A stretch of 64,000 nt of DNA from Candidatus Omnitrophota bacterium (GCA_003598175.1 QZKN01000097.1:23861-87860), one strand, 5' to 3'; numbered from the stretch's first letter, positions 374 through 36,858 are shown. Notes: generated by a model not told the origin, from the letters alone. Program-made: numbers and translations.

Positions 374-849
374 CGTTTTCCCTTTTCTTTATTTCAAGAA
401 TATTGTTTGCCTTTTAAAAACCATTCTTTTACCACGTCATTGTTCAATATTGTTATTATATTGCAAAAATAGGAAGATTGATAGACGTCACTACTCTCCC
501 ACATGGCAATAGATCTCCGTGAGCGGCATCCTCATGATTTGAATCGGCAACTCGCTATGTTGTCAATCGGCAACACTTTTTTGAATATAAAAGTGAAATC
601 AAGGTAACTATGATGGTTACTGCATTCCTTTCTTTGTATATTCATTAGCTACAAATCTAACCATCTCCATACCCATTCGTCTCCACCATAAAAGGAAACG
701 ATTGCATACACTGCTATAACGGATTGATTTTACGAATGTTACACAATTTTATCGATTTTTCAATTGTCCAAATTATCGTATAGGGAAATTGGCATGATCT
801 TTTCTATAATATAGGGTGATATTTAATTCTTAATAAAGATGAGTACAGC

Positions 850-1983
850 ATGACGATCTATCTCAACAACGCCGCCAGCGGTTGGCCCCGAGCGGAAGGG
901 GTATGTGAGGCGATGACGCTTACCCTGCAAACGCCGCCCTTTCATCCCGGACGAGTCGCAGGCGGTTGCGCGGACGTGTTGACGATTTGCAGGAGGGGAA
1001 TTGCGGAGTTGGTGGACGCGCCGGATCCCACTCGAATCGTATTGACCACGAACGCCACCCACGCCCTGAATCTGGCGTTTTGGGGTGTAAAGCTGAATGA
1101 CCATGCGCATGTAATCACAACAGTTACAGAACATAATTCCGTTCTCCGTCCCCTTCATCACGTGCGGGAACGCTTTCCCGGCCTGCGATTGACGATTCTC
1201 CCCACGAATGCAACCGGCGCTTTGGACGAAGAACAATTCGATCAGGCGCTGGAGAGAGAACCCACCCTCGTCGTGATCAACCACGCGTCCAACGTCACCG
1301 GCAGAGTGAACGAAGTCGAGCAATTATTCCAGAAAGCCAAAAAAGCCGGGGCGATGACGTTGTTGGATGCCTCCCAGTCGTTGGGTTCCATTCCGATTTC
1401 CGTCAAAAAAATCCAGGCCGATCTGATCGCTTTTACCGGGCACAAAGGATTGCACGGTCCGGCGGGAACCGGCGCGTTGTACGTGAATCCATCGTTGGAG
1501 TTGGAACAGGTTTTTGTGGGAGGAACCGGCGTGCGCAGCGATTTGATGCTGCATCCGGCCAATATGCCCATGCGTCTGGAAGCGGGAACGCCGAACATGC
1601 CGAGTTTTGCCGGATTGGCGGCGGCGTTGCGATGGTATCAAAAAGAAGGCGCAGCTCACGCCCAAAAAGCAACCGAATTGGCGAATCGGTTCCGTGAAGC
1701 ATTGATGAACATTCCCAAAGTGAAGGTATTCGACGGGACGGCCAAGGTTTGTCGCACGCCGGTGATCTCGATTCAAATCGCGGGATGGGCGGTGGAGGAA
1801 ATCGGGTACGTGTTGGCGGAGAGTTTCGGAATCATATGCCGCACCGGATTGCATTGTGCGCCCTTGATTCATCAGGCTATCGGGAGCGCGCCGGAAGGGA
1901 CGGTGCGATTCAGTTTTTCCGGATTCAACACGGAACTGGAGATGGAAACCGCTCTTGACGCGGTGCGGAGATTGGCGGCATGA
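850..1983 (+). CDS. Class V aminotransferase, in the cysteine desulfurase / selenocysteine lyase-like PLP-dependent family
   Basis: 377 aa. It carries the PLP-lysine region FTGHKGLHGPAGTGALYV and a C-terminal RTGLHCAP motif typical of the SufS/CsdA-like fold. Confidence 0.75.
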   Translation: MTIYLNNAASGWPRAEGVCEAMTLTLQTPPFHPGRVAGGCADVLTICRRGIAELVDAPDPTRIVLTTNATHALNLAFWGVKLNDHAHVITTVTEHNSVLRPLHHVRERFPGLRLTILPTNATGALDEEQFDQALEREPTLVVINHASNVTGRVNEVEQLFQKAKKAGAMTLLDASQSLGSIPISVKKIQADLIAFTGHKGLHGPAGTGALYVNPSLELEQVFVGGTGVRSDLMLHPANMPMRLEAGTPNMPSFAGLAAALRWYQKEGAAHAQKATELANRFREALMNIPKVKVFDGTAKVCRTPVISIQIAGWAVEEIGYVLAESFGIICRTGLHCAPLIHQAIGSAPEGTVRFSFSGFNTELEMETALDAVRRLAA

Positions 1984-2264
1984 AAATCACGGAAATCAAA
2001 AAGATCGAGGATTGCTTCGACGGGAGCACAGTCTATGGGTATACCTTTGACGCGGTTTGGACGCAGGACCGGATCCAGCAATTTCGAACTTTGGGAAATC
2101 TGGATTATTTCCCGGATTTCCCCCGCCCCTTTTTTCGCGTGTGTCAAAAAAACGGCGTACAAATCAAAGGGATTCAAGGCGATAACAATTGTCGCGTGAT
2201 TTACCCCCAAAAACAGAAGGAGGTGAGAAAAAAAGAATTTGAAGAGGCGTTTATGGAATCATGA
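1980..2264 (+). CDS. Small hypothetical protein (94 aa)
   Basis: Its start overlaps the upstream stop in an ATGA arrangement, which suggests translational coupling. No recognisable domain. Confidence 0.35.
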   Translation: MKITEIKKIEDCFDGSTVYGYTFDAVWTQDRIQQFRTLGNLDYFPDFPRPFFRVCQKNGVQIKGIQGDNNCRVIYPQKQKEVRKKEFEEAFMES

Positions 2265-2307
2265 TTTCATTGGTATTGTATTTTTATCAAAACCGGAGGT
2301 AGCGCAG

Positions 2308-3219
2308 ATGGATCATTTGTATTCAAGTACAAGAGTAGTCATACTCACCTGTTTTGTTTTATTCGCCGGAGTGTGTGGAGCCGGGGCTCAGGATTCCCCC
2401 CCTCCTCTCCCCCCCATTGGGATCGAAGGATACGGCGGCGTGTTTTCGACCTATTCCGCCTACCTGGTCAATCCGGCCAGGGAAGGCGCAATATTCGGAT
2501 ACCCCAGCGTCGCGTACACGTATGTGTTTCTCGGGCATGGAAGGCATCTCAACACCTTCGCGATCACGGAAACCTTGTGGGATCGGGTGGAACTGGGATT
2601 TGCCTACAATCTGCTGGATATCGGGGATCTGCCTCAGGCCGTCGGCGTTCCTATCGATGATTCCGTCGATTTGTACAATTTCAACGCGCGCCTGGCTTTG
2701 CTGAAGGAAGGCGATTTCGAGATGCCTTGGCTGCCCGCGTTGACATTCGGCGTTCACTACAAATACAACGACACGATCAATGATATCGATCGGGATTTAG
2801 GCGGCGCCTTGCGCAATATCGGCATCGCCGACAATGACGGCGTCGATTTCACCCTCTACGCCACGAAATTGTTTACGCAATTGCCGCGACCGGTTCTGGT
2901 GGATTTCGGTCTTCGCGCCACCGAAGCCGCCCACCTCGGCTTGCTGGGATTCACGAAGGGGTACGAAATCATGGCGGAAGGCAATGTGATGGTTTTCGTG
3001 ACGGACAAATGGCTCGTCGGCGCGGAATATCGCATGAAACCGAACGAATATCGACGGATCCCAGGTCTGGTGGAAGGAGAAAATGATTGGTGGACGATCT
3101 GCATGGGGTATTGCGTCAACGATCATATGTCTGTTTCCGCCGGATACGGACATTTCGGCGACGTTCTTAATCACGAAGCCAACGGCAGTTGGGGCATTCG
3201 CATCAAGTGGGAATTTTGA
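2308..3219 (+). CDS. Putative outer-membrane beta-barrel protein with a signal peptide
   Basis: A GGAGGT RBS lies 8 nt before the ATG at 2308. The N-terminus MDHLYSSTRVVILTCFVLFAGVCGAGAQD looks like a signal peptide, a Pro-rich linker follows, and the C-terminus ends ...WGIRIKWEF with a terminal aromatic residue typical of OM beta-barrels. The longer start at 2239 in the track was rejected. Confidence 0.45.
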   Translation: MDHLYSSTRVVILTCFVLFAGVCGAGAQDSPPPLPPIGIEGYGGVFSTYSAYLVNPAREGAIFGYPSVAYTYVFLGHGRHLNTFAITETLWDRVELGFAYNLLDIGDLPQAVGVPIDDSVDLYNFNARLALLKEGDFEMPWLPALTFGVHYKYNDTINDIDRDLGGALRNIGIADNDGVDFTLYATKLFTQLPRPVLVDFGLRATEAAHLGLLGFTKGYEIMAEGNVMVFVTDKWLVGAEYRMKPNEYRRIPGLVEGENDWWTICMGYCVNDHMSVSAGYGHFGDVLNHEANGSWGIRIKWEF

Positions 3220-3260
3220 CAAGCACAGGAAACTACCAAATCGTTTGGAGGTACATTCTT

Positions 3261-3452
3261 ATGGCAGAAAAACTAAAAAAACTGTATGAATTCGCGGAGC
3301 AGGCGGGCGGCATCGAAGCCAAAATGCGCCTGGCCGTGATGTCGGGCATTTCGTCGGTCAAAGCGGCGACGGAGCCGGATTCACCGGAAAACATCGCCAA
3401 ACTCAAAAAAGCAATCAAAGAAGTAACCGGAAAAGATGCGCCCATAAGTTGA
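3261..3452 (+). CDS. Small helical protein (63 aa), first gene of the V4R/MCP operon
   Basis: GGAGGT RBS. Sequence MAEKLKKLYEFAEQAGGIEAKMRLAVMSGISSVKAATEPDSPENIAKLKKAIKEVTGKDAPIS is predicted all-helical. The next gene follows tightly. Confidence 0.45.
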   Translation: MAEKLKKLYEFAEQAGGIEAKMRLAVMSGISSVKAATEPDSPENIAKLKKAIKEVTGKDAPIS

Positions 3453-3472
3453 TTCAAAAAAGGAGAAATTTC

Positions 3473-4009
3473 ATGGCTCAATTTAAAACCACAGAGATCG
3501 TTCTCGATCACAAATTCGATCCGAAAACCTGCCGTCATTCGCTCAACGACATGGTCCACGTGCTTCATTGCCATCATTACGCCACATTGTATTCCCGTCT
3601 GGCCGATGATTGTGGCATGTTGGACGGCAAGAAACTCCTGGCGGAAGTGTCGGAAGATACGTTTTCTGCATTTTTGATACGTTATTATGAGAGAAATACC
3701 GTCCAAACAATTGCGGAAAAAATCGCCATTGCCGAGCAATACTACGCGGCAACCGGTTTGGGGCAGATGCAGGTAACCTGCGCGGGGATGGAATCAGGAG
3801 AAGTGAATTTGATCCATTCCCATGTCGATGAAGGGTGGATCAAAAAATGGGGCAAACGTGATCAACCCGTCAATTTTATCACGGCCGGCTATATCGCGGG
3901 AATGTTTAACGCCCTCTTCGGATGCGCTCCACGCACTTATCACGTTGTGGAAAGCGAATGTATCGTGAGCGGCGCGGAGCGGTCGAAGTTCGAAGTGGTG
4001 AGGAAATAA
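3473..4009 (+). CDS. V4R-domain (4-vinyl reductase-like) small-molecule-binding protein
   Basis: RBS AAAGGAG. The C-terminus FITAGYIAGMFNALFGC...VVESECIVSGAERSKFEV matches the V4R G..G....E.xC...G...C.F pattern. There is an N-terminal His/Cys cluster HVLHCHHYATLYSRLADDCG. Confidence 0.65.
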   Translation: MAQFKTTEIVLDHKFDPKTCRHSLNDMVHVLHCHHYATLYSRLADDCGMLDGKKLLAEVSEDTFSAFLIRYYERNTVQTIAEKIAIAEQYYAATGLGQMQVTCAGMESGEVNLIHSHVDEGWIKKWGKRDQPVNFITAGYIAGMFNALFGCAPRTYHVVESECIVSGAERSKFEVVRK

Positions 4010-4026
4010 CCAAGGAGGCATTCATT

Positions 4027-4635
4027 ATGGCAATCGATCGAAAACAAGTCATCAGCAATATGTCTAAAATCAAAGTGGTCGGGAATGAAGAAGGACTGAT
4101 TCCCGCATTCAATGTCTATATTACGCAATTGCCCGCCGCTTTCTGGAACGGTTTCGCCGAGCGTCTGACCCGGCAGGTCGGCGCGGAATTGCTGGAATCC
4201 GCGGAGTGGCTGCTCGTGAATGCGGCGCACGAATGCGGATATCATACCGGCTACGGAATCATTACGTCGGAGGAATGGAAAGCCGTCGTGCAACCGATGG
4301 TGGAAAAGGTCCCGGAAGACATTCTTCATGGCGCTTTTGCCGTGTTCACCGCGTGGGGATGGGCGAAGAGCGAAATTACCGAGCTGATTCCCAATGAAAA
4401 GATGGTGGTCCGCGCTTACGACTATTACGAATCCGACGTTGTCACGTACGGCGCTTCCAACAAAATGAGCGCCTACATGATCCGCGGCGTTTGCGCGGCG
4501 TTCATGGATTTGGCGTACGGCGGAGAATACGATCCGACAGGAAAAACCGGATTGCGCACCTTCCAGTGCCAACAAGTCAAGGGCATCGAATGCGGCGATG
4601 AGTATGGTGAATTTGTCGTGACCCATGCGAACTGA
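4027..4635 (+). CDS. V4R-domain protein, paralogue of the preceding gene
   Basis: An AAGGAGG RBS sits before the ATG at 4027. The C-terminus MIRGVCAAFMDLAYGG...FQCQQVKGIECGDEYGEFVV is V4R-like. The extension to 3922 in the track was rejected. Confidence 0.65.
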   Translation: MAIDRKQVISNMSKIKVVGNEEGLIPAFNVYITQLPAAFWNGFAERLTRQVGAELLESAEWLLVNAAHECGYHTGYGIITSEEWKAVVQPMVEKVPEDILHGAFAVFTAWGWAKSEITELIPNEKMVVRAYDYYESDVVTYGASNKMSAYMIRGVCAAFMDLAYGGEYDPTGKTGLRTFQCQQVKGIECGDEYGEFVVTHAN

Positions 4636-4734
4636 ATAACAAAATCGGAGGGAAGGCCGAAAGGAATGGATTTCGGCCTTCCCTCCGAATACAAGACGTG
4701 CGGGGATAAAAATACGAGAAAAAAGGATCCGATC

Positions 4735-6351
4735 ATGAAATGGGATAATGTGAAACTTCGTAATAAATATGCAATTGCTTTTGGCGTTCAAATCATCCTG
4801 CTCTGTTTTATTGCCGCACTGGCGATCTCGACTGTCAGTCGCATGGCAGTAAACGGAAATCAATTGATACAAAGCCATGATATCGTAAATGAGCTCTCTT
4901 TGAGAGAAATCGAACATTTGGAATGGGCATCTCATGTGCTCGAATTTTTCACCGACGAAAAAGCGTCCTCCGTCGACGTGCAAACCAATCCGGACCAATG
5001 CGTCTTTGGTAAATGGTTGGCCGGTGTGGAGAGAAAACAAGCGGAGCAAACGATTCCGGCGCTTGCCGTTCCTCTTGCCGCCATAGAAAAGGCGCATCGC
5101 GAACTCCACACGTCGGCGGCGGAGATCAATCAATTGGCGCAAAAGGGAGAGAAAACCTCTGCATTGGCGGTTTTTCATGACCGCACAAAACCGGCGTTGC
5201 TCCAAATCCGGGATTTGTTGCGAGCAGCGAGAAACACGGCCGCGCAGGCGTCGGACAAGTCGGAAATGCTTCTGCAGGATCATGCAAGAACCACCAAAAG
5301 CTCTACGTTATACCTGTGCCTGTTGTCGCTCCTGATCGGGATTTCTCTCGCCTATTTTATTTCCAGCGGATTTATTCGAACGATCCATCGCTTGGTCCTT
5401 TTTTCACGGAGTCTCGCCGCCGGAGATCTTTCGCAGTCCATGCCGTGCAATCGTATCGATGAACTGGGGATTCTGGCCAATGCGTTGAACTCGATTCGGG
5501 ACAAATTGCACGACATGATGGATAACATTCAACAGGCCGCCGACCAGATTGCCGCCAGCGCGGAGGAAATGTCTTCCTCGGCCCAAAATCTTGCCGCCGG
5601 CACATCGGAGCAGGCTTCCAGCCTGGAGGAAACTTCCGCCTCCATCCATCAACTGACCGGTTCCATCCAGCAAAACGCCGCTCATGCGCAAAAGACGAGC
5701 GAAGCGACCATGATAGCCGCGTTGGAAGTGGAGGAAGGCGGCGGCTCCGTTCTGGAAATCGTAAAATCGATGAAAAGCATCGCGCAGCAGATTTCCATTA
5801 TCAATGATATTGCCGATCAGACCAACCTGCTTGCTTTAAACGCAGCCATCGAGGCCGCGCGCGCCGGCGAATTGGGAAAAGGATTCGCCGTCGTGGCCGT
5901 GGAAGTGCGCAAATTGGCGGAACGCAGTCAACACGCCGCAAAGGAAATCGGCCAATTGTCGGATAAGAGCGTCAAACAGGCGGAAGCTATCGCAAACTAT
6001 TTAATTGAAAAGGTGGTTCCCGGCGTGCAAAATGCCTCGCAGTTGGTGCAGGAGATCACCTCCACCTGCAACGAACAGTCCAACAGCGCCGAACAAGTGC
6101 AAAGCGCGATCACCCAATTGGATGAAATCACGCAACGCAACTCCGCGACGAGTGAAGAGTCAGCATCGGCCAGCGAAGAATTGGCGGCGCAGGCAAAATC
6201 ACTGCAGGATATCATTCACGGATTTAAGATGAATTCCTCCGGCAACGCGCTGGACGTTCAGGAAGAGCGATCGTGGATGCATGAGAACATGCAGGAGGAT
6301 ATCCCGTTGATGGTTTCGGATTTCACGGAACGTCATTTCCGCAAGCCATGA
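4735..6351 (+). CDS. Methyl-accepting chemotaxis protein with a CZB-like (chemoreceptor zinc-binding) motif in its periplasmic sensor region
   Basis: Domain order is TM1, a roughly 160 aa sensor, TM2, HAMP and the MCP signalling domain ([16 protein letters not shown]...). The sensor contains HLEW, then 28 residues, then CVFGKW, then 32 residues, then HRELH. That is the complete 3His/1Cys CZB signature. Confidence 0.85.
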
Positions 6352-6560: not shown

Positions 6561-6977
6561 TTATGGCACGACTTCCAGCGTCGTACCATCACGAAGGCGA
6601 TAGATGCGAAAATCGTTATCCAATGAGAATATATGATGGAACTTGCGACTTTCAGCAACCACCACAAGTGAAGCGTCGGCCAAGTCCATTGGTGTGTCCT
6701 GGTACTGCGCCATCAACTTGTCCATACGATCGATTTCAGCGTACGTATGATCGTGTAGGATTAACCGCCCGTTTGTTCGAAGTCTCCATAGTTCAGTTTG
6801 ATATTGATATCCACCCACCGATCCCAGCAAATACATCGCTTCCGTGAAGCACGGCCATGTTGTCAACATGGGGCCATATGATAGTTGTTTTACCGCGGTG
6901 ACACAAACAGTATGATAAGCATCATCTTTATCCAAAAGCGCAACTACAGGTCCGGTGTCAGTGAGAATCATACTCAT
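6561..6977 (-). CDS. vapC: PIN-domain toxin (VapC family)
   Basis: 138 aa. The N-terminus MILTDTGPVVALLDKDDAYH is PIN-like. It overlaps the upstream small gene by 4 nt. Confidence 0.75.
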   Translation of the reverse strand: MSMILTDTGPVVALLDKDDAYHTVCVTAVKQLSYGPMLTTWPCFTEAMYLLGSVGGYQYQTELWRLRTNGRLILHDHTYAEIDRMDKLMAQYQDTPMDLADASLVVVAESRKFHHIFSLDNDFRIYRLRDGTTLEVVP

Positions 6978-7282
6978 CCTTGTCGCCGTTTTTGGACCAA
7001 CGCAGCAGTGAATTTTTGACCACAGTTTTCAGAAAGGCGCGCACCGCCATGAATATGGTTGCCACTGGAGAGGACGCCAATATGCCCAACAAGAAAATCG
7101 GCAAGTGTTTTCTGCTCCGTTTCCGAAGGATCATCCCCTTTTTTTGTAACAAACCGATTTTGGAGGCAGTCGAGTGCGAGCATCTCCGGTGTTGTCTTTT
7201 GTCTGTTTGCCTCCTCGCACAATGCACTTTCAATAGCGGGAGTTAGCGTGATTTTCATTGGTATTTCCCTTAGTTTATTCAA
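6974..7282 (-). CDS. Putative ribbon-helix-helix antitoxin partner of VapC (VapB-like)
   Basis: Small ORF overlapping the toxin start (ATGA). The core MKITLTPAIESALCEEANRQKTTPEMLALDCLQNRF has beta-strand then helix character. The exact start is uncertain (7258 or 7282). Confidence 0.5.
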   Translation of the reverse strand: MNKLREIPMKITLTPAIESALCEEANRQKTTPEMLALDCLQNRFVTKKGDDPSETEQKTLADFLVGHIGVLSSGNHIHGGARLSENCGQKFTAALVQKRRQG

Positions 7283-7970
7283 TTTCCTTGATTTTAATAT
7301 TCCGGAAAAAAATCGGCGCGCCGGCGTGTTTTCCCTGCAGACCGATTCGTCCGAACGTTTTCAATTCGGCTTTCGGCTTGCTCAACCAGGACGGGATTTC
7401 GCTGCCGTCGGGATTGGTTTTGGCGCTGGTCCATAATTTCATGTCCATGACGGTGACCGTCTCCCCGTTCAGCATCACGTAAATCATGTTGTCCTTGCAG
7501 GTGATGGTGAAACGGTTCCACTCGCCCGGCTTCTTCACCATGCTTTTCTTTGCGGCCAGATGCCCGAAGATGGCGGCGCATTGCCAGGTTTTCGGTTGGC
7601 TCGACCATTTTTCGGAAAAATCGTCGGCGATTTGAATCTCGACCGAATTGGGAATCCAATTTTTCATGTCGCTGCAGTAGACGATGACGCCGCTATTGGT
7701 TCCGTCGGCGGTTTTGAATTCCAGATCCAATACGAAATTGTCATAATCCTTATTACTCCAAATCGCTTCGTCCTTACTGGCCGTGAGAACGCCGTCTTCG
7801 ACCGTCCATACTCCCTTCGGAAACTCCGCATTGGAGAGATCCGCGTTGAACAACGCCTGCCACTCGCCGCTGTCGGGATGCGCTTTCGGCGGAATTTCCA
7901 TCTCGCCGGCTGATGACAATACGGGCAATACAACTCCAATCACTGCGACCAATACAACTAATTTTTTCAT
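7275..7970 (-). CDS. DUF1080 (3-keto-disaccharide hydrolase-like) secreted protein
   Basis: The start at 7970 gives MKKLVVLVAVIGVVLPVLSSAGE, a signal peptide. The body has GVWTVEDGVLT...RIGLQGKHAGAPIFFRNIKIKEI, which is characteristic of DUF1080. Confidence 0.75.
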   Translation of the reverse strand: MKKLVVLVAVIGVVLPVLSSAGEMEIPPKAHPDSGEWQALFNADLSNAEFPKGVWTVEDGVLTASKDEAIWSNKDYDNFVLDLEFKTADGTNSGVIVYCSDMKNWIPNSVEIQIADDFSEKWSSQPKTWQCAAIFGHLAAKKSMVKKPGEWNRFTITCKDNMIYVMLNGETVTVMDMKLWTSAKTNPDGSEIPSWLSKPKAELKTFGRIGLQGKHAGAPIFFRNIKIKEIE

Positions 7971-8151
7971 GGGTAACTCCTCTCTGTTTTTACGTTCAAT
8001 CACACCAAGCGGATTGAATCGATGGTTTTCATAGAAACCGTCATGATCGGTAGATCACAATGCGGACGGGACGTCCGCGCTCCGGCATTTTCATTTTAAT
8101 AATTATGCTTCGTTCTTTCTGTTTGTGGAAGCCGCTGAAATTCCTTCCCAA

Positions 8152-8215
8152 AAATATTTACACAGTTAAATATTTAGGGTTGACAATATTTACACGATGC
8201 GATATCCTATTCAGG
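8152..8215 (+). promoter_or_regulatory. Putative blaI promoter with palindromic operator sites
   Basis: aaatattta-cacagt-taaatattt is a 9 bp perfect inverted repeat (8152-8175). TTGACA at 8180-8185 is followed by a second copy of atatttacac (8186-8195). Both lie about 80 bp upstream of blaI. Confidence 0.5.
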
Positions 8216-8295
8216 AATGAGGGATCACCGCCGTCTCGGCGGTTCTATCCTGCCGTCGAAAATATGGAAAGACGGTAACCGAAAGAAGGTGAATC

Positions 8296-8700
8296 ATGAA
8301 AAGGAAAAATTACAGCGTTTCCGAAGCGGAAATGGAGATTCTGCGTGTGTTGTGGGAACGTGGGCCGTCCACGGCAAAGCAGGTGCGCGAACACCTGCCC
8401 CGCCGCGACGATCCGGCCTACTCCACCGTGATCACGCTGCTGCAGCGCATGGAAGCCAAGGGCAGCGTCGGCCACGAAAAGAGCGGGCAAGGGAAAGCGT
8501 TCGTCTTTCATACTCTTTTGAAGCCCGAACAGGTACGCAAACAAGCGGTCCGTTCGTTAGTAAAGAGATACTTTGAAAACGATCCGATTCCGGTTTTTGC
8601 CGCGCTGGTGGAATCGAAAAAATTAAGCGGCGACGAAATCCGACAGTTGCAGGACATGCTGGACGATATCACCCGCCAACAATCGGAAAAACCAAACTGA
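8296..8700 (+). CDS. BlaI/MecI/CopY-family winged-helix transcriptional repressor
   Basis: 134 aa. MKRKNYSVSEAEMEILRVLWERGPSTAKQVREHLP...YSTVITLLQRMEAKG is canonical for the family. Confidence 0.8.
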   Translation: MKRKNYSVSEAEMEILRVLWERGPSTAKQVREHLPRRDDPAYSTVITLLQRMEAKGSVGHEKSGQGKAFVFHTLLKPEQVRKQAVRSLVKRYFENDPIPVFAALVESKKLSGDEIRQLQDMLDDITRQQSEKPN

Positions 8701-8708
8701 CGTTACAG

Positions 8709-8966
8709 ATGCTAAATCCGACGGTTCGGGAACTGCTGGATACGGTTCTCCCGGTTCATGGACTGGATTATCAAGTCAAAAACGGAACGATCGTGATTGC
8801 CAAACGGACGGAAGAAACCTTCAAATTATATACTGTCCAGCGTGGGGATACCCTGGCGGCGATTGCACAAAAGTATTCCGTTTCCGTGGATGACCTGAAA
8901 ATCCACAATCCGGAGTTGACCGATCCGAGTGGTTTATCCGTTGGGCAAAAATTGAGGATCCCTTAA
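8709..8966 (+). CDS. Small STN-like plus LysM domain protein, possibly a remnant of a BlaR1-like sensor
   Basis: LLDTVLPVHGLDYQVKNGTIVIAKR matches the end of a secretin/TonB N-terminal (STN) domain. YTVQRGDTLAAIAQKYSVSVDDLKIHNPEL...GQKLRIP is a LysM motif. Confidence 0.5.
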   Translation: MLNPTVRELLDTVLPVHGLDYQVKNGTIVIAKRTEETFKLYTVQRGDTLAAIAQKYSVSVDDLKIHNPELTDPSGLSVGQKLRIP

Positions 8967-10123
8967 CCGGCGTTCCCCTTTTTCACAAGCGGCTCTTTTT
9001 GCGGAACGATGAATTCCGACAGATCGACTGTATATGCGCCCGTGCGGTCGAATTCAAACGTGTAGGCGTATTTGGTGGAATAATCATACACGACCTGATC
9101 GTACAAACCCGCCTGGGGAGCATAATCCTGAATTTTATAATAGCGAAGGTTCCGTGCATACGGCCATGAATCCCCCTTTACCTGCCCGGGAATCTCGCCG
9201 ACGCCGATTTCGATGTCCACCCGCACCTTGCGTTTATACGACGCCTGCAATCCATAGCTCTTGTAATGCTGGTCCGCGCCCTTTTGATCGTCGCGATAAT
9301 TGGTTTTAAACACTTCGACCAGATACACAATGCTGTCCGGCGCTCGCTTTTGCCCCTGTTCATCAAATTGTTCGCGCTGAATCCGGACGCGTTGAATCAG
9401 ATATTGTTTGTCGCTGCCGATGGCTTTGGTGTCGGTGTAATACAGCAGAAACATCGACTCGCCGTTGCAACCGCAGATGAATTCCTTGTCCAGTTCCCGC
9501 GACAGGTCCACGCCGGCCTTCGCCGCCAATTTGGCTATTTCTCTATATTCATCTTTTTTTAAAAGATCGGCGGCGCTTTTCTGATATCTGGGTTTGGCGG
9601 CCTCCATCGCGGCGCGCAAGGTCACCGGCACATTGGCGACCGTGCGCTGCTGCAGCGGAATATCTTTTGTCAAGGTGGTTTGCGTCCAAACCGATTTCAC
9701 TTCCTCCTCGATCATTTTTCGTGGAAACGACAATCGCGTTCCCGTTTTGTTGTTTCCGAAATAGAATTTTGTTTCCCCGCTTCCCACGTTGACATCGAAC
9801 GTCTCCGGCGCGGATGGTTTCATCAGAAACCATTGATTGCGATACACGAACAATTCGTATTCCGCCCCGTCCTTTGTCTCGTCGGTTTCGAAATAGACGT
9901 GCAAACCCAGCAACGCCGTATGCGGCTGTCCTTCCACATACTGATCCAAAGAATCCGGCGAAAGCAGGGGGATCGTCAGCGAATAATCGGAGAGGGTCCA
10001 GGATAATAATCCCGAATACGGTCCGCTGATTTTCAAAGAAGCGGATCGGCAGGATAACGGAGGAATGAACAATACAACCAGAAACGCCAACAGAAAAACA
10101 CGAATTCTTCTCAAGAAAAACAT
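8963..10123 (-). CDS. Hypothetical secreted protein
   Basis: 386 aa. The signal peptide is MFFLRRIRVFLLAFLVVLFIPPLS. No recognisable domain. Confidence 0.55.
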   Translation of the reverse strand: MFFLRRIRVFLLAFLVVLFIPPLSCRSASLKISGPYSGLLSWTLSDYSLTIPLLSPDSLDQYVEGQPHTALLGLHVYFETDETKDGAEYELFVYRNQWFLMKPSAPETFDVNVGSGETKFYFGNNKTGTRLSFPRKMIEEEVKSVWTQTTLTKDIPLQQRTVANVPVTLRAAMEAAKPRYQKSAADLLKKDEYREIAKLAAKAGVDLSRELDKEFICGCNGESMFLLYYTDTKAIGSDKQYLIQRVRIQREQFDEQGQKRAPDSIVYLVEVFKTNYRDDQKGADQHYKSYGLQASYKRKVRVDIEIGVGEIPGQVKGDSWPYARNLRYYKIQDYAPQAGLYDQVVYDYSTKYAYTFEFDRTGAYTVDLSEFIVPQKEPLVKKGNAG

Positions 10124-20962: not shown

Positions 20963-21379
20963 TGCATGATTTACTCTTTGTGAAAACACGAACATGTATC
21001 CGGCGACTATGTCTCCTTCCCCAACCTATTGATTTACCGGAAAATGCCTTTTAGTCGCTTAGATTGTTACAAGTGAACTACTCCGACTACATCTTGGGTT
21101 TTAGCCTCCGGAGGTCGCTTCTTTGACACATGGACGCTGGGAGTGAGATTTGTAGGGGGGAATATTACGCGTGGAAAAAAGGAGATGCCGCCGATAGTTG
21201 TGGTTCAATATGATGGGTCGGAGGAGATGGAGTTTTGGATGGAAGAATGAAGTCTGAATCGGGAGGGCAGGATGATAAGGATATTCAAGATAAGGTAACG
21301 CCGTGGTCTCGACTTCAGGATGCCGGTAAGAAGCCGGAGGGAAAGTACGAAGCATCACGAAAGAAAGGAGACGGTGAAC

Positions 21380-21673
21380 ATGAAGTACACCGTGATTCTC
21401 ACGGAAGAACAGGGCCGTTTTCAAGCAACGGTTGCCGGATTACCGGATTGTCACGTGAAGGCGAATACACGACTGGATGCGCTCAACACCATTCGTGACG
21501 CAATCAACCGATTGATCGGCCGTAGTGAGATTGTCCAACTCGAGGTGCCAACGAACCCGAAATTCTCGAACCTTCATTCCGATGTTCCCTGGGAATGGTT
21601 TGGGGCTTTTAAAGAAGATCCGACTTGGGAAACATTGTTCGATGACATCGAGCGCCAGCGAAGTACCGATTAA
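21380..21673 (+). CDS. HicB-like (UPF0150 fold) antitoxin with a C-terminal extension
   Basis: MKYTVILTEEQGRFQATVAGLPDCHVKANTRLDALNTIRDAI. It is immediately followed by a PIN toxin gene. Confidence 0.55.
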   Translation: MKYTVILTEEQGRFQATVAGLPDCHVKANTRLDALNTIRDAINRLIGRSEIVQLEVPTNPKFSNLHSDVPWEWFGAFKEDPTWETLFDDIERQRSTD

Positions 21674-21688
21674 ATTGAAAGATCGCAT

Positions 21689-22117
21689 ATGTATCTATGG
21701 GATTCCAACATTTTGAGGCATTATGGGGAGGGACGCCCCCATATTCGACTCTATCTGGAGCATGTGAGTTGGTCTGAAATTGCGATTCCATCCGTTGTGG
21801 TTGCAGAAGTGTTGCGAGGGCGATGTGATTTTGCTCTAAAAGCCACCCCGGCGTTAGCAGTATACGCTCATGAGATGTTGATGAAAACAAAAAAGTTTTT
21901 GGAACAATTTACGATTTGTGTTTTTGATGAAGATTGTTCAAAAGCATTACACGAACGGAAACAACGTCACAAGGCTCATAAGCGTTATGCCGACATGCTT
22001 ATTGCTGCCATGGTGCAAGCGGGAAACCATGTCATTGTTACGCGAAACGTAGAAGATTTTGCCGTGCTATTACCCAAGAATCGAATTATCAATTGGATTG
22101 ATGAAAAACCGAAATGA
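21689..22117 (+). CDS. vapC: PIN-domain toxin (VapC family)
   Basis: MYLWDSNILRHY...VVAEV...IVTRNVEDF. 142 aa. Confidence 0.75.
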   Translation: MYLWDSNILRHYGEGRPHIRLYLEHVSWSEIAIPSVVVAEVLRGRCDFALKATPALAVYAHEMLMKTKKFLEQFTICVFDEDCSKALHERKQRHKAHKRYADMLIAAMVQAGNHVIVTRNVEDFAVLLPKNRIINWIDEKPK

Positions 22118-22231
22118 GTTTTGGAAGCTGAATTAGTTTTGTAGGGTGGGCTCGATTCAGCCTACCATTCGGATTTGGGATACTATGGGTGGGTTACGCT
22201 TCGCTTTGAGCCCATCCTATGCAGCTATAAA

Positions 22232-22429
22232 TTAATCAATCCAACGCCATGTAATATCCCTTATATCATAAATAATAATTCCCATAATAATCAAAGTCAA
22301 AATAAATCCGACCGAATTCACCTCGGAAACAGAAGCATCAGGCTTTTTAAAGCCTAAAACAATCGCAAAAAAAGATAAAACACAAACCAAACGAAAAATC
22401 CGTGGCCGTCTCGACACATATTTATCCAA
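22232..22429 (-). CDS. Small putative membrane protein in an AT-rich segment
   Basis: Hydrophobic segments (LVCVLSFFAIVLG, FILTLIIMGIIIY). The start is non-ATG. The surrounding GC is far below the rest of the window. Confidence 0.25.
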   Translation of the reverse strand: MDKYVSRRPRIFRLVCVLSFFAIVLGFKKPDASVSEVNSVGFILTLIIMGIIIYDIRDITWRWID

Positions 22430-22488
22430 ACGTGCAACTCTATAAATTAATAATCCGATGAATGTAAAAAATAAAGCGCCCGAATTAC

Positions 22489-22665
22489 CTGCTAAACTAA
22501 AAAAAATGAAATAAGAATAAATAATGCAGATATGAAACTTAAGATGTAACGTAATTTGGGGAATTTTGGTTCCGGTTCCAATCCACTATAAAGGTGACGT
22601 CTTTCATATTCCTCTGGTGATTCTTTATGACTATAATAGTTCCCATTTTTTGCTAAATAAGACAT
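22489..22665 (-). CDS. Small ORF (58 aa) with a hydrophobic C-terminus in the AT-rich segment
   Basis: GGAGGTAATC then ATG. Sequence MSYLAKNGNYYSHKESPEEYERRHLYSGLEPEPKFPKLRYILSFISALFILISFFLV. Not in the ORF track because it is under 60 aa. Confidence 0.25.
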
Positions 22666-23067
22666 GATTACCTCCTTTGGGTTCTACTTCCACTGGAAAC
22701 GCTTTACATTTTAAAAAAGCTCGTCCTATGAATGTAGAGTAGATAGAAGTAAAATTCCTTCGTATGAAATAATAACTCTTTGCCGATTTTAGGGAATAAA
22801 CCCAGTGACTAGTATGTACATCAAGATCGTATCTGGCGTCATCCTTTTTTCCTTGCATCTCGCAATGAACGTTCCTCTACTTTAGTGGTCAAGACGTATG
22901 CCGTCAATACGCATGCCGTCAATACGTAGTTATACCCAACGTATAATCGTTGATCAACAATCATACGACATGGAAAAACCCGTTCGGATTCATGCCGAAC
23001 AATTGAAACCCCATTATCACGGAAAAACCCAAAAACCATTCGGTTTTCTCTCGAATGGTAACATGGT

Positions 23068-23172
23068 TGTAGCATGGATTTTTTGATGTTTCCGGAATGA
23101 AGCGTAAGTCTAATGAAATCAAAGTCGGGGTGAGAGGATTTGAACCTCCGGCCCACTGCTCCCAAAGCAGTT
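23068..23172 (-). repeat. att-like repeat: a 48 bp 3' fragment of tRNA-Pro (23125-23172) plus a conserved 55 bp flank, called module A here
   Basis: Positions 23125-23172 are identical to 31526-31573, which is the tRNA from its 3' end through the anticodon stem. Positions 23068-23122 nearly match 31057-31112, and the 3' part recurs at 31504-31525. Confidence 0.8.
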
Positions 23173-23353
23173 TACCCCCCCTACATATGGTATCACGGAT
23201 TAACACGGTTAAACGTAAATCCCTCATTTTATTCATTCTTTACTTGCATGGTCTACTTTACAAGCATCATGATATACCATATACTGTGTTGACTTGGTGT
23301 TGACTTGAGAGGGTATGGCGACAAATATCTCAAGTTTCATAGGAGGCGACGGC

Positions 23354-24571
23354 ATGAGTAAAGCGGCACGAAAACGTTTGCGGTTGACGAAGTCGATTAT
23401 CGACAAATTGGAGTATCCGGCGTTGCAATCGGGAAATCCGGATGTTCCGATTTACCCGTCATGCATTTATTGGGATACGGAAATCCGTTCCTTCGCCGTC
23501 CGTGTTTTCCCATCCGGCAAAAAATCCTACATTCTCGATTATCGCTGCAGAGGGCGGCATCGGCGGATGACGATAGGTTCATGTTCGGTTTTGACTCTCC
23601 ACCAAGCTCGAGAACGGGTAAGAAAACTGATGATTCAAATTTTAGACGGGGTTGATCCCTTGGAAGTCCGGGAATCACAGCGGAAGGTTTTGACCGTTAC
23701 GGAATTTTCGAATTTATTCATCGAACGGTACGCAAAGAAGTTTCGAAAATCATGGAAGGAAGACGCGCGGAGGCTCCATAAACACGTTATTCCGGCGTTC
23801 GGCTCGATCAGGCTTGATGCTCTGCAACGCGGCGACATATCGGCGTTTCATGCGGAAATCGGTGAATCATCCCCGGTTGAAGCGAATCGGGTAACGGAAC
23901 TTTTCCGGCGCATGTTTCACGTCGCGATGGAATGGGGATATTTGCCGTCCACGTTCGAGAATCCGGCGAAGGGCGTCAAAAAGTTTCCGGAAAAATCGCG
24001 GGAACGTGTGTTGACGGAAGAGGAAATCATCGCAATCGGGCAGGCGTTGATCGAAGAACAGAATGTTTATGCGCGAACGGCGATCACGCTTGCACTGCAC
24101 TTGGGTAACCGTATCGGAGAAATCCTCAAAGCGAAGTGGCGGGATGTGAATCTGAAAAATCGAACCTGGCTGTTTCCGGATACGAAAAGCGGCAAACAGC
24201 ACACTTTGCCGTTGACGGAGGAAACCGTGGGGCTACTCGAAAGCATACCCCGTGATTCATCAACAAAGGAAATTTTTCCGATCAAGAGCGTTCGCAAGGC
24301 ATGGGAGAGAATACGAAAAAAAACCGGATTGGAGAATATTCGCATTCACGATTTAAGGCGTTCGGCGGCAAGCATGATGGTGGACGATGGAATCTCGCTG
24401 CACATCGTGTCCAAGGTTCTGAACCATTCGAGTTTATCGATAACCAGCGGGGTTTATGCGCATGTCGGGATGGATCCGGTTGAAGACGCCTTACAAAAAC
24501 ATTCGAAGAAAATCGTTTCTTTGTTTCAACCGGCAACCGATGAAACAGGCGGTAAGGAAAACGTTTCTTGA
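23354..24571 (+). CDS. int: Tyrosine-type site-specific integrase
   Basis: An AGGAGG RBS sits before the ATG at 23354. The catalytic region has ...RIHDLRRSAASMM...H...Y in the C-terminal part. It is adjacent to the partial tRNA copy. Confidence 0.85.
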   Translation: MSKAARKRLRLTKSIIDKLEYPALQSGNPDVPIYPSCIYWDTEIRSFAVRVFPSGKKSYILDYRCRGRHRRMTIGSCSVLTLHQARERVRKLMIQILDGVDPLEVRESQRKVLTVTEFSNLFIERYAKKFRKSWKEDARRLHKHVIPAFGSIRLDALQRGDISAFHAEIGESSPVEANRVTELFRRMFHVAMEWGYLPSTFENPAKGVKKFPEKSRERVLTEEEIIAIGQALIEEQNVYARTAITLALHLGNRIGEILKAKWRDVNLKNRTWLFPDTKSGKQHTLPLTEETVGLLESIPRDSSTKEIFPIKSVRKAWERIRKKTGLENIRIHDLRRSAASMMVDDGISLHIVSKVLNHSSLSITSGVYAHVGMDPVEDALQKHSKKIVSLFQPATDETGGKENVS

Positions 24572-24612
24572 TGAAATGACCAGGAAAAAAGAAAGGAAGG
24601 AAGGAAGGAATC

Positions 24613-24963
24613 ATGGAAAAAACAATGTCACAAGCGGAAATCGAACGGCTGTTTGCCGATGAACCGGCGGGCGCAACGGCGGTGATGGATGACTTTCCGG
24701 ATGGAATCCGGGCGGCGGTCACGGGCGCGAAGGAATCGGCGACGGTCACGGCGGCGGCGGCAATCCCAGAAATCCTGAAAATCTTGTCGACCGTTGACGG
24801 GAAATTTCATCCGTCAATTTTCGCGGCGGTCACGGCGATTCAACGCACAGCGGCAGGCGATAGCGTCACGGCAATCGGCGATCAATTGAATGAACTTGCT
24901 TCCCGGCGATCACGGGAAACAAGGGCGAACGGCAAGCAAAGGCGGCGATGGTGGGGAAGGTGA
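24613..24963 (+). CDS. Hypothetical protein (116 aa) in the int-alpA interval
   Basis: An Ala/Thr-rich protein ending in a basic tail RRSRETRANGKQRRRWWGR. Polypurine RBS. No known domain. Confidence 0.45.
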   Translation: MEKTMSQAEIERLFADEPAGATAVMDDFPDGIRAAVTGAKESATVTAAAAIPEILKILSTVDGKFHPSIFAAVTAIQRTAAGDSVTAIGDQLNELASRRSRETRANGKQRRRWWGR

Positions 24964-24994
24964 AAAATCCCCTCAACGCCAAAAGGATGAAACC

Positions 24995-25867
24995 ATGTCC
25001 CGAAAAAAAAAGGTAACCGACTTGCCAACTTGCCGATGCGAAGAAAAAATCATTTGGGATGACGGCAAAGGAAACCAGAGGTTTGAATGCAGTTATTCAA
25101 CCGATATAAGATTCTCTCAAAAGGTCAAAAACCAATTGATCCTACATGCCGGAATGGGCGCATATGAGGCGGAAAAGTTTTTAAACGATTATCCGAAACG
25201 AAGCAAAAACATGTTAAAATGCGTCAAAGGAAATCTTGATGATTATCACCTGCATTGGGCAAAAATTCGGGATGAACAAATTGAGGCAAGAGACAAATTG
25301 CAGAAAGCGGATGTGGAATTTTCATCAGCGAACAGGCCGTTTTTGTGTAACCAATATTCACTATGTTATGATCCTTCGGATGACGGCGATTTCATGAAAC
25401 AGTTTGCCGAAAAGCGAAACGCGATTGTAGCCTGTCACGGGGAAGTGGCCAAATTATTCACTGAACCTTTTTTAGATTTGGGAAAAATCGGATTATCATT
25501 GATCGATTCAATTCAAGCAGAACAGGATTTTTTGCAATACTTCAACAATCGGCGCGTGCAGCAACTGACCAAAGACTTACAAGGCCGACCTTCCAAAGGC
25601 GACGTAAACATCACACTAAAAAACCTGGCGCAAACATTCATACAATTCCACCAATGGAAAAAAAATAGAAAATGCAAGAAAGCGATTCGTGAGCATTGCG
25701 TTCGATTCGTTGCCGTTGCACTTGCAGCGGCAATGATCGAAGTTCCCGAATCAGGAAATATTGCGGAAAGTCACGCACTGCCAAATGCTCACGATAACCG
25801 TCTTGTTAAACGAATTTCATCCGCATACGACTTCATTCAACGAACCCCCAAACCCCTCTCAAAGTAA
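24995..25867 (+). CDS. Hypothetical protein (290 aa) in the int-alpA interval
   Basis: AAGGA RBS. The N-terminal Cys cluster is CRCEEK...FEC. No recognisable domain. The longer ORF 24890.. in the track was rejected as the start. Confidence 0.5.
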   Translation: MSRKKKVTDLPTCRCEEKIIWDDGKGNQRFECSYSTDIRFSQKVKNQLILHAGMGAYEAEKFLNDYPKRSKNMLKCVKGNLDDYHLHWAKIRDEQIEARDKLQKADVEFSSANRPFLCNQYSLCYDPSDDGDFMKQFAEKRNAIVACHGEVAKLFTEPFLDLGKIGLSLIDSIQAEQDFLQYFNNRRVQQLTKDLQGRPSKGDVNITLKNLAQTFIQFHQWKKNRKCKKAIREHCVRFVAVALAAAMIEVPESGNIAESHALPNAHDNRLVKRISSAYDFIQRTPKPLSK

Positions 25868-26011
25868 AAAAAATCATCTTTTTTACCCGTTGTAACTCCT
25901 TGATTTCATTGGAGAACGCAAAAAGTCACGTCAAAAAAGAGGCGACTTTTTGCGCAGGCGGGAAAAAGGTTCTGTGACAATCCATCTTAAAAAAGAAAGC
26001 GAGCTTCAACA

Positions 26012-26269
26012 ATGGATTATCACGAAATGATTAACGTTCCGCTCCACTTGGATCCCGATGCTTTGCTCAGCGAAAGGCAAGCGGCGGAGTTTCTTGGTTT
26101 CACAATTCGAGCGCTTCAATCCTGGAGGCAAAAAGGCAACGGTCCGAAATTCGTCAAAATTTCGGCAAGGGCGATTAAATATAGGCGGCGGGATTTGGTT
26201 GAATGGTGCGAGGGAAAAATTCGAAAATCCACATCCGATAGCGGCGGCGCGGGGGGGGATGAATCATGA
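26012..26269 (+). CDS. alpA: AlpA/Xis-like HTH (HTH_17) excisionase or regulator
   Basis: LLSERQAAEFLGFTIRALQSWRQKGNGPKFVKISARAIKYRRRDLVEW. Its stop overlaps the next gene (ATGA). Confidence 0.7.
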   Translation: MDYHEMINVPLHLDPDALLSERQAAEFLGFTIRALQSWRQKGNGPKFVKISARAIKYRRRDLVEWCEGKIRKSTSDSGGAGGDES

Positions 26270-27975: not shown

Positions 27976-27987
27976 GGGTGTTGTTTT

Positions 27988-28398
27988 TTGAACAGATGGG
28001 GAATTAATTCGTTTCTTTCGTTTAATTCGTACCATGCGGAGGGAAAAATGAGCGGGAAATATTTTGCTTTGGCAAAGGAAACGCTTGAAAGAATAAGAGC
28101 GAATGAATCGAAACTTATTCATTCGAATGATTCGGTTATTCAACTGCAACCGGCGACGCGGGTTTATCCGAAACCTGAACCGTTCATCCCGCCATTCTAT
28201 GGCCGTGTGCGAGACCGTAGGGCGAAGGAATTGATCGATTCCGGCATTGAACCGGCGGCGGCGAAGGAACAGGCGCAAACGGAAATCATCGACTTTTATG
28301 AAAAGATTCAACGCGGGGAAACAATTAAATCGATTCATTGGTACCCGGCAAATGAGGCCGGGCTTGTTCTTTGCATTCCGGAAAGGGCGAAGAAATGA
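27988..28398 (+). CDS. Hypothetical protein (element cargo)
   Basis: ORF downstream of the primase gene. The likely true start is the internal MSGKYFALAKE. No domain recognised. Confidence 0.4.
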   Translation: MNRWGINSFLSFNSYHAEGKMSGKYFALAKETLERIRANESKLIHSNDSVIQLQPATRVYPKPEPFIPPFYGRVRDRRAKELIDSGIEPAAAKEQAQTEIIDFYEKIQRGETIKSIHWYPANEAGLVLCIPERAKK

Positions 28399-28427
28399 CG
28401 GAAAATGTAACGTTTTGGGACACTTAA

Positions 28428-28670
28428 ATGCAAAACAGTGAAGGACTTAAACAACAGGATACCCCGGTAGGCCGGTTAAACTCGATTTCAGCCGTTCGCA
28501 AAGAGATGGTTCGCGTTTATCGCGGCACAGTTTCCGGAAAAATCGAAGCGGAACGGGCGACAAAATTGATATGGATTCTCTGTCAGGTTCGCGATTCCAT
28601 TGAACTTGAGGCTGTTGAACCGGCAATCGAACGGCTGGAAAAACTGTTGACTGAAGGCCGATCAAGATAA
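28428..28670 (+). CDS. Hypothetical small protein (80 aa, element cargo)
   Basis: Tightly spaced in a three-gene series. No domain recognised. Confidence 0.4.
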   Translation: MQNSEGLKQQDTPVGRLNSISAVRKEMVRVYRGTVSGKIEAERATKLIWILCQVRDSIELEAVEPAIERLEKLLTEGRSR

Positions 28671-28681
28671 AGGCGGGAATC

Positions 28682-29050: not shown

Positions 29051-29091
29051 TGCTCACCACGGGCTTATATGGGTGTTTTAATTGAAATAAA

Positions 29092-35237: not shown

Positions 35238-35238
35238 C

Positions 35239-36852: not shown

Positions 36853-36858
36853 GGTTTA

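Follow-up and report, generated by a model that had tools for sequence, protein, structure and literature searches.

Among described proteins, the closest structural counterparts of the two proteins at the centre of this analysis are the sensor domains of the sigma-54 activators MopR, PoxR and DmpR, which act as dimers. A second point of comparison is provided by stand-alone H-NOX gas sensors, which are encoded beside histidine kinases, diguanylate cyclases or methyl-accepting chemotaxis proteins (MCPs) and act by protein contact, and a third by SufS-SufE/SufU and CsdA-CsdE, the known pairs of a desulfurase and its acceptor. Distinct V4R proteins encoded together have been described as clade A and clade B pairs in the pre-PcyA/BBAG clusters and in Synechocystis slr0144-slr0149 (Rockwell et al. 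2023, PMC10151467); the pre-PcyA/BBAG clusters also encode an Fe-S protein, bilin-binding globins, ferredoxin-dependent bilin reductases and often a haem oxygenase (PMC10151467), and the function of the paired slr0144-slr0149-type proteins is still unexplained (PMC13326532). In MsvR, a V4R redox regulator of methanogens, the V4R residues C206, C232 and C240 control a redox-dependent conformational switch (PMC3729527). Here we describe a locus that encodes two proteins with a predicted V4R-type fold, VA and VB, in a 64,000-nt stretch of DNA from a Candidatus Omnitrophota bacterium (GCA_003598175.1, QZKN01000097.1:23861-87860; hereafter the window, with positions counted from its first letter). 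VA and VB belong to a core module of five genes that travel together, in which they are accompanied by a relative of cysteine desulfurases (AT5) and by two small proteins (p94 and p63). The module is uncharacterised, widespread and highly conserved, and joins known parts in a new combination. Taxis and two-component genes occur beside it far above expectation, yet the partner varies and the link is a statistical one.

A first-pass annotation of the window had described an operon of four co-directional genes, each with a ribosome-binding site, that would couple p63 and two V4R-domain proteins to a chemoreceptor. These four genes form only the 3' part of an array of seven co-directional genes spanning positions 850-6351, which comprises, together with its flanking and internal non-coding elements, the following features:

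374-849, plus strand: AT-rich intergenic region of 476 nt upstream of the module, which we infer to be the probable promoter region of the array
850-1983, plus strand: AT5, class-V pyridoxal-phosphate enzyme, SufS/SclA-like cysteine (or selenocysteine) desulfurase; Pfam Aminotran_5
1980-2264, plus strand: p94, 94 amino acids (aa), one invariant Cys; candidate persulfide acceptor or fourth subunit
2308-3219, plus strand: DUF3034 protein, 303 aa, signal peptide, C-terminal ...KWEF; Pfam DUF3034 E 3.6e-29
3261-3452, plus strand: p63, 63 aa, small helical protein directly upstream of VA
3473-4009, plus strand: VA, 178 aa, stand-alone protein with predicted XylR_N+V4R fold
4027-4635, plus strand: VB, 202 aa, second protein with predicted XylR_N+V4R fold
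4645-4688, no strand assigned: stem-loop with a perfect 18-bp stem, separating VB from MCP; could act as an attenuator, as a partial terminator or to stabilise a 3' end
4735-6351, plus strand: MCP, 538 aa; first transmembrane segment, periplasmic CZB domain, second transmembrane segment, HAMP domain, MCP signalling domain

That p63, VA, VB and MCP are real genes is borne out by several lines of evidence. Their coordinates and the gaps between them (20 nt for p63-VA, 17 nt for VA-VB, 99 nt for VB-MCP) agree with the first-pass annotation, and Shine-Dalgarno-like motifs (GGAGG, AGGAG, AAGGAGG and AAGGA) lie 6-10 nt 5' of the four ATG codons. Public gene calls for JAGUZP010000155.1 (GCA_020060745.1) contain the same products of 63, 178, 202 and 538 aa, and identical proteins have been deposited as RJP26471-RJP26475 from a 'Candidatus Omnitrophota' metagenome-assembled genome (MAG). 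The homologous clusters number 544 for VA and 1467 for VB, and p63 is present in 68 of the loci examined. As the boundaries of an operon, the four genes turned out to be too narrow a choice: the conserved module begins upstream, with AT5 and p94, and the gene on the far side of the intergenic region 374-849 is divergent, on the minus strand according to public gene calls.

The composition of the module was derived from a census of 82 loci, based on tblastn coordinates and Pfam filtering. In most of these loci the genes are ordered either AT5-p94-p63-VA-VB or p63-VA-VB-AT5-p94; AT5 is linked to VA/VB in most of them, and the Pfam-annotated gene calls of relatives agree with a core consisting of AT5, p94, p63, VA and VB. 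With taxonomy taken from record titles, the 82 loci represent no fewer than 15 phyla of bacteria as well as three lineages of archaea, namely Thermoplasmatales, Woesearchaeota and Methanoregula. Bacterial relatives were found in Planctomycetota, Acidobacteriota, Myxococcota, Desulfobacterota and other Deltaproteobacteria, Armatimonadota, Gemmatimonadota, Verrucomicrobiota and Vulcanimicrobiota, furthermore in Ignavibacteria, Alpha- and Gammaproteobacteria, Aminicenantes, Bacteroidota and Clostridia, and Latescibacteria, Xenobiia and Brocadiia were seen among protein matches to VA/VB. Nearly all relatives stem from MAGs, and every one of them is annotated as 'hypothetical'. A literature search found no paper describing the module, and no Pfam or NCBIfam model covers VB, p63 or p94, so that the unit has been overlooked in current annotation.

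Judging from pairwise identities, VB is the most conserved gene of the module and under exceptional constraint. Its identity to the window protein amounts to 52-93% over the 82 loci (62-93% in the main group and 52-56% in a divergent subgroup), and to 75-93% among 30 homologues from several phyla. In the same loci the corresponding values are 39-75% for VA, 32-81% for p63, 33-66% for AT5 and 26-69% for p94. Because genes of one operon differ so much in identity, the conservation of VB reflects strong selection and not recent transfer alone.

The assignment of VA and VB to V4R-domain proteins holds at the level of fold, as seen in predicted structures, and not at the level of sequence thresholds. 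VA scores 25.2 bits against Pfam V4R (PF02830; gathering threshold 31 bits), a sub-threshold match restricted to residues 125-176, and VB has no Pfam match even at E 10 and no NCBIfam match. Profile searches of PDB sequences with the VA and VB alignments likewise returned no meaningful match. AlphaFold models, both computed from alignments of homologous sequences, reached a mean confidence (pLDDT) of 91.8 for VA and an acceptable 80.8 for VB, for which only one of five models was confident. Foldseek placed the sensor domains of PoxR, MopR and DmpR first in both cases, with a TM-score of 0.77 (E 3e-9, 172 aligned columns) for VA and of 0.62-0.67 (E 6e-6) for VB. Weaker matches were the V4R protein MJ1460 (2osd/2oso, E 3e-5), Bet3/TRAPPC3, YslB and, faintly, H-NOX. 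In these predicted structures the XylR_N+V4R sensor fold spans VA and VB entirely, and with 178 and 202 aa, each filled by the fold, neither protein has a sigma-54 AAA+ or helix-turn-helix domain. Paralogy of the two, as had been proposed, leaves no more than a faint trace in sequence: hhalign aligned 87 C-terminal columns with a probability of 55% (E 1.2e-4).

Conservation within VA and VB is concentrated on Cys and His residues. The His/Cys cluster HCHHY...C pointed out in VA by the first-pass annotation indeed stands out in an alignment of 33 sequences: H32-C33-H34-H35 is invariant and C47 is conserved to at least 90%, and S116-H117-x-D119 and G121-W122 are invariant as well. VB contains the invariant block ECGYHTGYGIITS at residues 69-81 (E69-C70-G71-Y72-H73-T74-G75-Y76-G77-I-I-T-S) and an equally invariant E188-C189-G190, and H68 and C181 are at least 90% conserved. 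C181 and C189 constitute a C-x7-C pair near the C-terminus of VB, at whose two corresponding positions VA mostly has Ser; the pair presumably coincides with the zinc-binding cysteines of the MopR/PoxR/DmpR sensor domains. That VA-VB contain a metal or Cys/His site is plausible.

That VA and VB act together is strongly supported by natural fusions. A profile search with VB against 1.84 billion representative proteins yielded 262 relatives, and all 59 listed matches of at least 340 aa combine an N-terminal VA domain (E 1e-26 to 1e-57) with a C-terminal VB domain, i.e., in the order of the genes. As the two are fused VA-first in distant relatives, they behave as one unit and very likely form one heteromer; the pairing of the two V4R proteins is thus upheld by conserved adjacency and by fusion in 59 of 59 long representative relatives. 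Some of the distant fusions pass the V4R threshold (e.g., P0322 with 38.3 bits), and many have a precomputed PF02830 match. Across 40 fusions, which share on average about 36% identity, the near-invariant positions include those that correspond to H32, C33 and H117 in VA and to C70 and T74 in VB, and these residues appear to be the best candidates for a site shared by both halves. The gene surroundings of the fusions resemble those of the split genes: in 24 of 51 cases the open reading frame (ORF) directly upstream matches the p63 profile at E<0.01 (none after shuffling), a p94-like protein with an N-terminal Cys is encoded directly downstream (hmmsearch E 6e-7 to 2e-3), and Aminotran_5 is the commonest neighbour family. 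The retention of p63, p94 and Aminotran_5 by the fused family identifies p63, VA, VB and p94 as the ancient core, joined by a dedicated desulfurase in many lineages. One cultured carrier, Thermosynechococcus sp. HY213 (GCA_031460975.1), encodes at positions 7348-9553 a 202-aa ORF, a 413-aa VA-VB fusion and a 98-aa ORF that holds the position of the p94-like gene in the distant family; a desulfurase gene is not nearby. The existence of cultured carriers of this kind makes experiments feasible.

Compared with MopR, PoxR and DmpR, with which they share the full-length sensor fold, VA and VB are stand-alone proteins devoid of an AAA+ or DNA-binding output, would form a hetero-pair instead of a homodimer, and add the invariant HCHH and ECGYH motifs as well as a desulfurase and two small proteins. 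The pre-PcyA V4R pairs, which we compared by their description, are likewise distinct paralogues encoded together and tied to iron-sulfur chemistry, but in our module VA and VB are accompanied by a cysteine desulfurase, by p94 and p63 and by signalling genes. The module provides a second independent case of obligately paired V4R paralogues beside slr0144/slr0147, and may help to explain both. In MsvR, the spacing C232-x7-C240 equals that of VB C181-x7-C189, an equation judged from spacing; MsvR differs in being a single, homodimeric polypeptide with a fused DNA-binding domain and in lacking a desulfurase, a paired paralogue and a chemotaxis link. H-NOX proteins share the logic of a small soluble cofactor sensor and a weak resemblance in fold (E 2e-4 to 4e-3). 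However, a TM-score of about 0.4, a root-mean-square deviation of about 10 Å and the absence of haem-binding features from VA and VB set the two apart, and the module, in which three or four different proteins presumably assemble and which brings its own enzyme for mobilising sulfur, does not belong to the H-NOX family.

AT5 matches Pfam Aminotran_5 with E 1.1e-72. Its scores stay below the family cut-offs, just below in the case of TIGR01977 (353 versus 377 bits) and far below for SclA (278 versus 525) and SufS (201 versus 475), with 150 bits for CsdA. By these scores AT5 classifies as a relative of the TIGR01977, SclA and SufS cysteine desulfurase/selenocysteine lyase families and as an equivalog of none. 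Its translation shows an FTGHKG lysine motif (GHK) and an RTGLHCAP cysteine loop, to which we assign a function by analogy with SufS-type motifs. The start of p94 overlaps the stop of AT5 by 4 nt. In p94, C12 within an EDCFDGS motif is at least 95% conserved in a 68-homologue alignment and is the sole invariant Cys. AT5 resembles the desulfurases of the SufS-SufE/SufU, CsdA-CsdE and SclA/TIGR01977 systems in its family matches, and its translation is coupled to that of a small protein in which one Cys is invariant, but p94 differs from known acceptors: scanned against Pfam and NCBIfam to E 10, it has no detectable similarity to SufE, SufU, CsdE or TusA. The presumed final acceptor, a V4R-fold heteromer, is different as well. 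Neither p94 nor p63 has any match in Pfam (to E 10) or NCBIfam; p63 displays the conserved pattern GG..MR.A...S.KA..PD.P...K..A.KE.TGK over the 68 loci.

With respect to signalling partners, an MCP signalling domain is encoded within 2.5 kb of the module in 27 of 79 non-redundant loci. MCP density per 10 kb is 0.78 within this distance, falls to 0.28 at 2.5-5 kb and to 0.14-0.17 at 5-10 kb, an enrichment of about five-fold over the outermost interval. The first-pass annotation had proposed gene-neighbourhood analysis as a check for recurrent MCP linkage; carried out here, it revealed such recurrence, and V4R genes of this type cannot be said to lie usually away from MCP genes. The adjacent MCP genes are mostly on the same strand and directly adjoining, and their placement varies: they precede AT5 (at a distance of 13-133 nt), precede p63 or, as in the window, follow VB. 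Among 115 same-strand immediate neighbours classified by Pfam, MCPsignal is the commonest family (25), followed by Response_reg (8), PAS_4 (7), Roadblock/LC7 (7), HAMP (6), DUF4388 (5; which we take to be the PATAN domain), CheW (3), HATPase_c (3) and Hpt/CheA dimerisation (2). In the divergent subgroup, a Roadblock/LC7 gene occupies the p63 position 8-50 nt upstream of VA (L074, L076-L081), and a REC-DUF4388(PATAN)-Roadblock or REC-DUF4388 gene replaces p63 in L079, L066 and L082; taken together, the Roadblock and REC-PATAN-Roadblock genes of this subgroup lie 8-62 nt upstream of VA. The replacement suggests one adaptor slot that either p63 or Roadblock can occupy. Neighbours of the fused family include kinase, GAF, MCP, CheB, CheR and SpoIIE genes; at one fusion locus, CheR is accompanied by a CheA-CheW-REC hybrid, a hybrid kinase and Hpt. 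What had been proposed as the operon partner is accordingly recurrent and at the same time optional: the MCP changes position, is absent from about two thirds of the loci and may be replaced by other signalling proteins. CheA, CheW and CheY are not among the 25 commonest of the 71 families assigned to the 42 other ORFs of the window.

Inspection of the adjacent MCPs by a simple hydropathy scan indicated that about eight of the 27 have two close transmembrane segments that leave no space for a periplasmic domain; two full-length ones are devoid of transmembrane segments, and the remainder have periplasmic regions of roughly 50-800 residues. The window MCP was correctly recognised as such in the first-pass annotation, with all three Pfam scores exceeding their cut-offs: MCPsignal (residues 318-484) reaches 126.5 bits (cut-off 34.6), HAMP (213-260) 32 bits (25) and CZB (61-131) 39.9 bits (29.4). 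Its hydrophobic segments begin at about residues 10 and 189, and since the CZB domain lies between the two, it is periplasmic. The best-studied CZB (chemoreceptor zinc-binding) domains are cytoplasmic.

Taking these observations together, we tentatively propose, at somewhat short of an even chance, that the module is a heteromeric Cys/His-cofactor sensor that is matured by a dedicated sulfur relay and feeds taxis signalling. p63, VA and VB would constitute a cytoplasmic heteromeric sensor, in which the conserved Cys and His residues might hold a sulfur-dependent cofactor, be it a persulfide or a centre (metal or Fe-S) with Cys/His ligands. Candidate residues are VA H32, C33 and H117 and VB C70, which are kept in the distant fusions, plus VB H73, C181 and C189. 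Sulfur could be passed from the active-site Cys of AT5 to Cys12 of p94 and onward to the Cys/His site shared by VA and VB. The state of this centre (redox, oxidant, sulfide or metal status) would be communicated by protein contact to a neighbouring signalling partner, which may be the downstream CZB-HAMP chemoreceptor in this genome, and elsewhere histidine kinases, REC-PATAN-Roadblock proteins or MCPs without a built-in sensor domain. Owing to the stem-loop that follows VB, expression of the sensor genes could exceed that of the gene behind it. Two precedents make such a mechanism reasonable: redox sensing by V4R cysteines of equal C-x7-C spacing in MsvR (PMC3729527), and the known design of dedicated pairs of a desulfurase and its acceptor. 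A broader proposal, for which our expectation is lower, goes beyond the single locus: p63-VA-VB-p94 and the desulfurase could represent an ancient and hitherto unrecognised class of heteromeric, cytoplasmic V4R-fold sensors, equipped with a sulfur-derived, Cys/His-ligated cofactor and a maturation machinery of their own, that would convey redox, sulfide, oxidant or metal input to chemoreceptors, Roadblock/PATAN motility regulators and kinases of archaea and of many bacterial phyla. Many chemoreceptors lack a recognisable sensor domain, and a soluble sensor complex encoded beside them would be a testable answer for one class of these; the module would also be a rare case of a signalling-associated unit that brings along its own cofactor-maturation genes.

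Several points weigh against a sensor of this kind. The cofactor, the ligand and the partner contacts of VA-VB are deduced, and SclA, a selenocysteine lyase, is the best-scoring named relative of AT5, so that the mobilised element could be selenium. Many distant fused relatives have no neighbouring desulfurase, and among the 150 best representatives none has VA or VB fused to an MCP, a kinase or another output domain. About two thirds of the loci have no signalling gene adjoining the module, and the extreme conservation of VB is unusual for a sensor and would equally fit an enzyme or a structural complex. In the window itself, the MCP has its own periplasmic CZB sensor, which weakens the simple idea of a ligand-presenting accessory, and a very stable stem-loop, considered below, separates VB from the MCP gene.

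Some of these points would be accommodated if the module were an effector or metabolic unit, for instance a complex for sulfur or selenium trafficking, a carrier or a cofactor-handling complex, that is controlled by, or co-regulated with, chemosensory-like or two-component pathways. We regard this as unlikely, though it survives better than the other alternatives. A dedicated desulfurase with a single-Cys acceptor is the classic layout for sulfur trafficking, the 62-93% identity of VB is more reminiscent of an enzyme or cofactor protein than of a sensor, most loci have no signalling neighbour, and the REC proteins encoded directly upstream of VA in some loci look as though they were signalling to VA. 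A thiol, redox or metalloid context, and not a signalling one, is seen in one widespread lineage (loci L083-L086), where genes for an ArsP-type permease, an ArsR-family helix-turn-helix protein, thioredoxin, DsbD and peroxiredoxin follow VB (VA cluster of 19 sequences, 11 contigs read); the ArsP, ArsR-type and thioredoxin/DsbD genes would suit an effector. Speaking for a sensor instead, no biosynthetic or acceptor enzyme recurs beside the module, the predicted fold is that of a ligand-sensing domain, and many of the adjacent MCPs have no sensor domain of their own and hence need an input.

Less probable still is that the ligand of VA-VB is small and hydrophobic (aromatic, tetrapyrrole or bilin), after the manner of MopR/DmpR, BchJ or the V4R pairs of bilin clusters, and that they present the signal to the MCP, the desulfurase being incidental. 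This was close to the ligand class, hydrocarbon or tetrapyrrole-like, that the first-pass annotation had associated with V4R proteins. The best structural matches of VA and VB are phenol-binding sensor domains, and V4R pairs do occur together with an Fe-S protein and bilin-binding globins (PMC10151467). Yet the identity of VA and VB to MopR/PoxR is just 13-17%, and conservation across the superfamily falls on Cys and His rather than on the signature of a hydrophobic pocket. The gene context lends no support either: haem oxygenase, bilin reductase, globin and aromatic-catabolism families are missing from the 25 commonest neighbour families in both censuses, which led us to reject a bilin/tetrapyrrole context. 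The Fe-S protein of the pre-PcyA clusters is likewise missing from these 25, and the called genes of 15 loci include neither it nor any of the three bilin-related partners (globin, bilin reductase and haem oxygenase). Moreover, a desulfurase and a Cys protein accompany VA/VB in two distantly related families, and can hardly be incidental.

A further alternative, which we consider improbable, concerns the window alone: its MCP could be an independent periplasmic zinc/oxidant (CZB) chemoreceptor, with the module ending at the stem-loop and the adjacency being meaningless here. The stem-loop at 4645-4688 has a minimum free energy of -42.3 kcal/mol (z -6.2), and none of 200 shuffled sequences was as stable. 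In relatives, stem-loops of the same strength but unrelated sequence occupy this position; with the criterion that 50 nt directly behind VB fold at -18 kcal/mol or lower, such structures are present in 71-86% of family loci, depending on the class of the downstream gene, versus 41% for a control window inside VB. These position-conserved stem-loops, the MCP's own sensor domain and the absence of an MCP from two thirds of the loci, together with its variable placement elsewhere, speak for an independent receptor. Against this, the closest relatives (L001, L003 and L070) retain the VB-hairpin-MCP arrangement, MCP genes are enriched five-fold around the module, the stem-loop is followed by a T-run only on the minus strand and by none on the plus (coding) strand, and the 46 nt from its end to the MCP start contain no promoter-like match (a sigma-70-like promoter was searched for in 4636-4734). 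Post-VB stem-loops are as common when the module's own AT5-p94 follow, the exception being four loci with p94 next, and so do not mark the end of functional coupling. For the same reason, and given the lack of a T-run on the coding strand, a plain end-of-operon terminator is weakened as an explanation. The element would rather be an intra-operon attenuator or a 3'-end stabiliser that raises p63-VA-VB above the downstream gene, and it is no proof of separate transcription of VB and MCP. For the proposed operon coupling to the MCP the stable stem-loop means that co-transcription is at best attenuated.

That VA-VB might be a prokaryotic TRAPP/Bet3-like pair which, together with p63 or Roadblock/LC7, regulates a small Ras-like GTPase of polarity or motility, is very improbable, and the notion of a GTPase regulator was rejected, because an MglA-like GTPase gene occurs in only one of the 82 loci, no GTPase family is among the frequent neighbours and bacterial sensor domains fit far better (TM-score 0.77 versus 0.5), even if Bet3/TRAPPC3 are significant fold matches (TM-score about 0.5), Bet3 heterodimerises with paralogues (according to the titles of PDB entries 2c0j and 2j3r) and Roadblock/LC7 genes lie directly upstream of VA in the divergent subgroup.

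The DUF3034 gene of the array has been inserted into the module in certain lineages only. It sits between p94 and p63 in none but the closest relatives (L001, L003, L070 and L087), and it is found beside the module in L005, L017 and L053. Its product resembles an outer-membrane barrel, an envelope protein that recurs, in varying position, with a cytoplasmic module in several lineages.

A few other features of the window may be mentioned. Directly downstream of the MCP gene, on the opposite strand (6561-7282, minus), two ORFs of 138 and 102 aa overlap by 4 nt and have no family match. At 21320-22117 (plus), a 117-aa ORF is followed by a PIN-domain ORF (21689-22117), an arrangement that looks toxin-antitoxin-like. 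The stretch 22000-31600 is probably an integrated mobile element: its GC content is low (0.41-0.48 versus about 0.51 elsewhere), it harbours a tyrosine integrase (23315-24571, plus) and a protein with a DnaB N-terminal-like domain (26266-27975, plus), and it ends at a tRNA-Pro(tgg) gene (31525-31599, minus). Farther downstream, a long co-directional cluster on the minus strand (33858-49198) contains type II secretion or type IV pilus-like genes, with T2SSE ATPase, T2SSF, T2SSG pseudopilin, secretin and N-terminal methylation motif families represented according to family counts.

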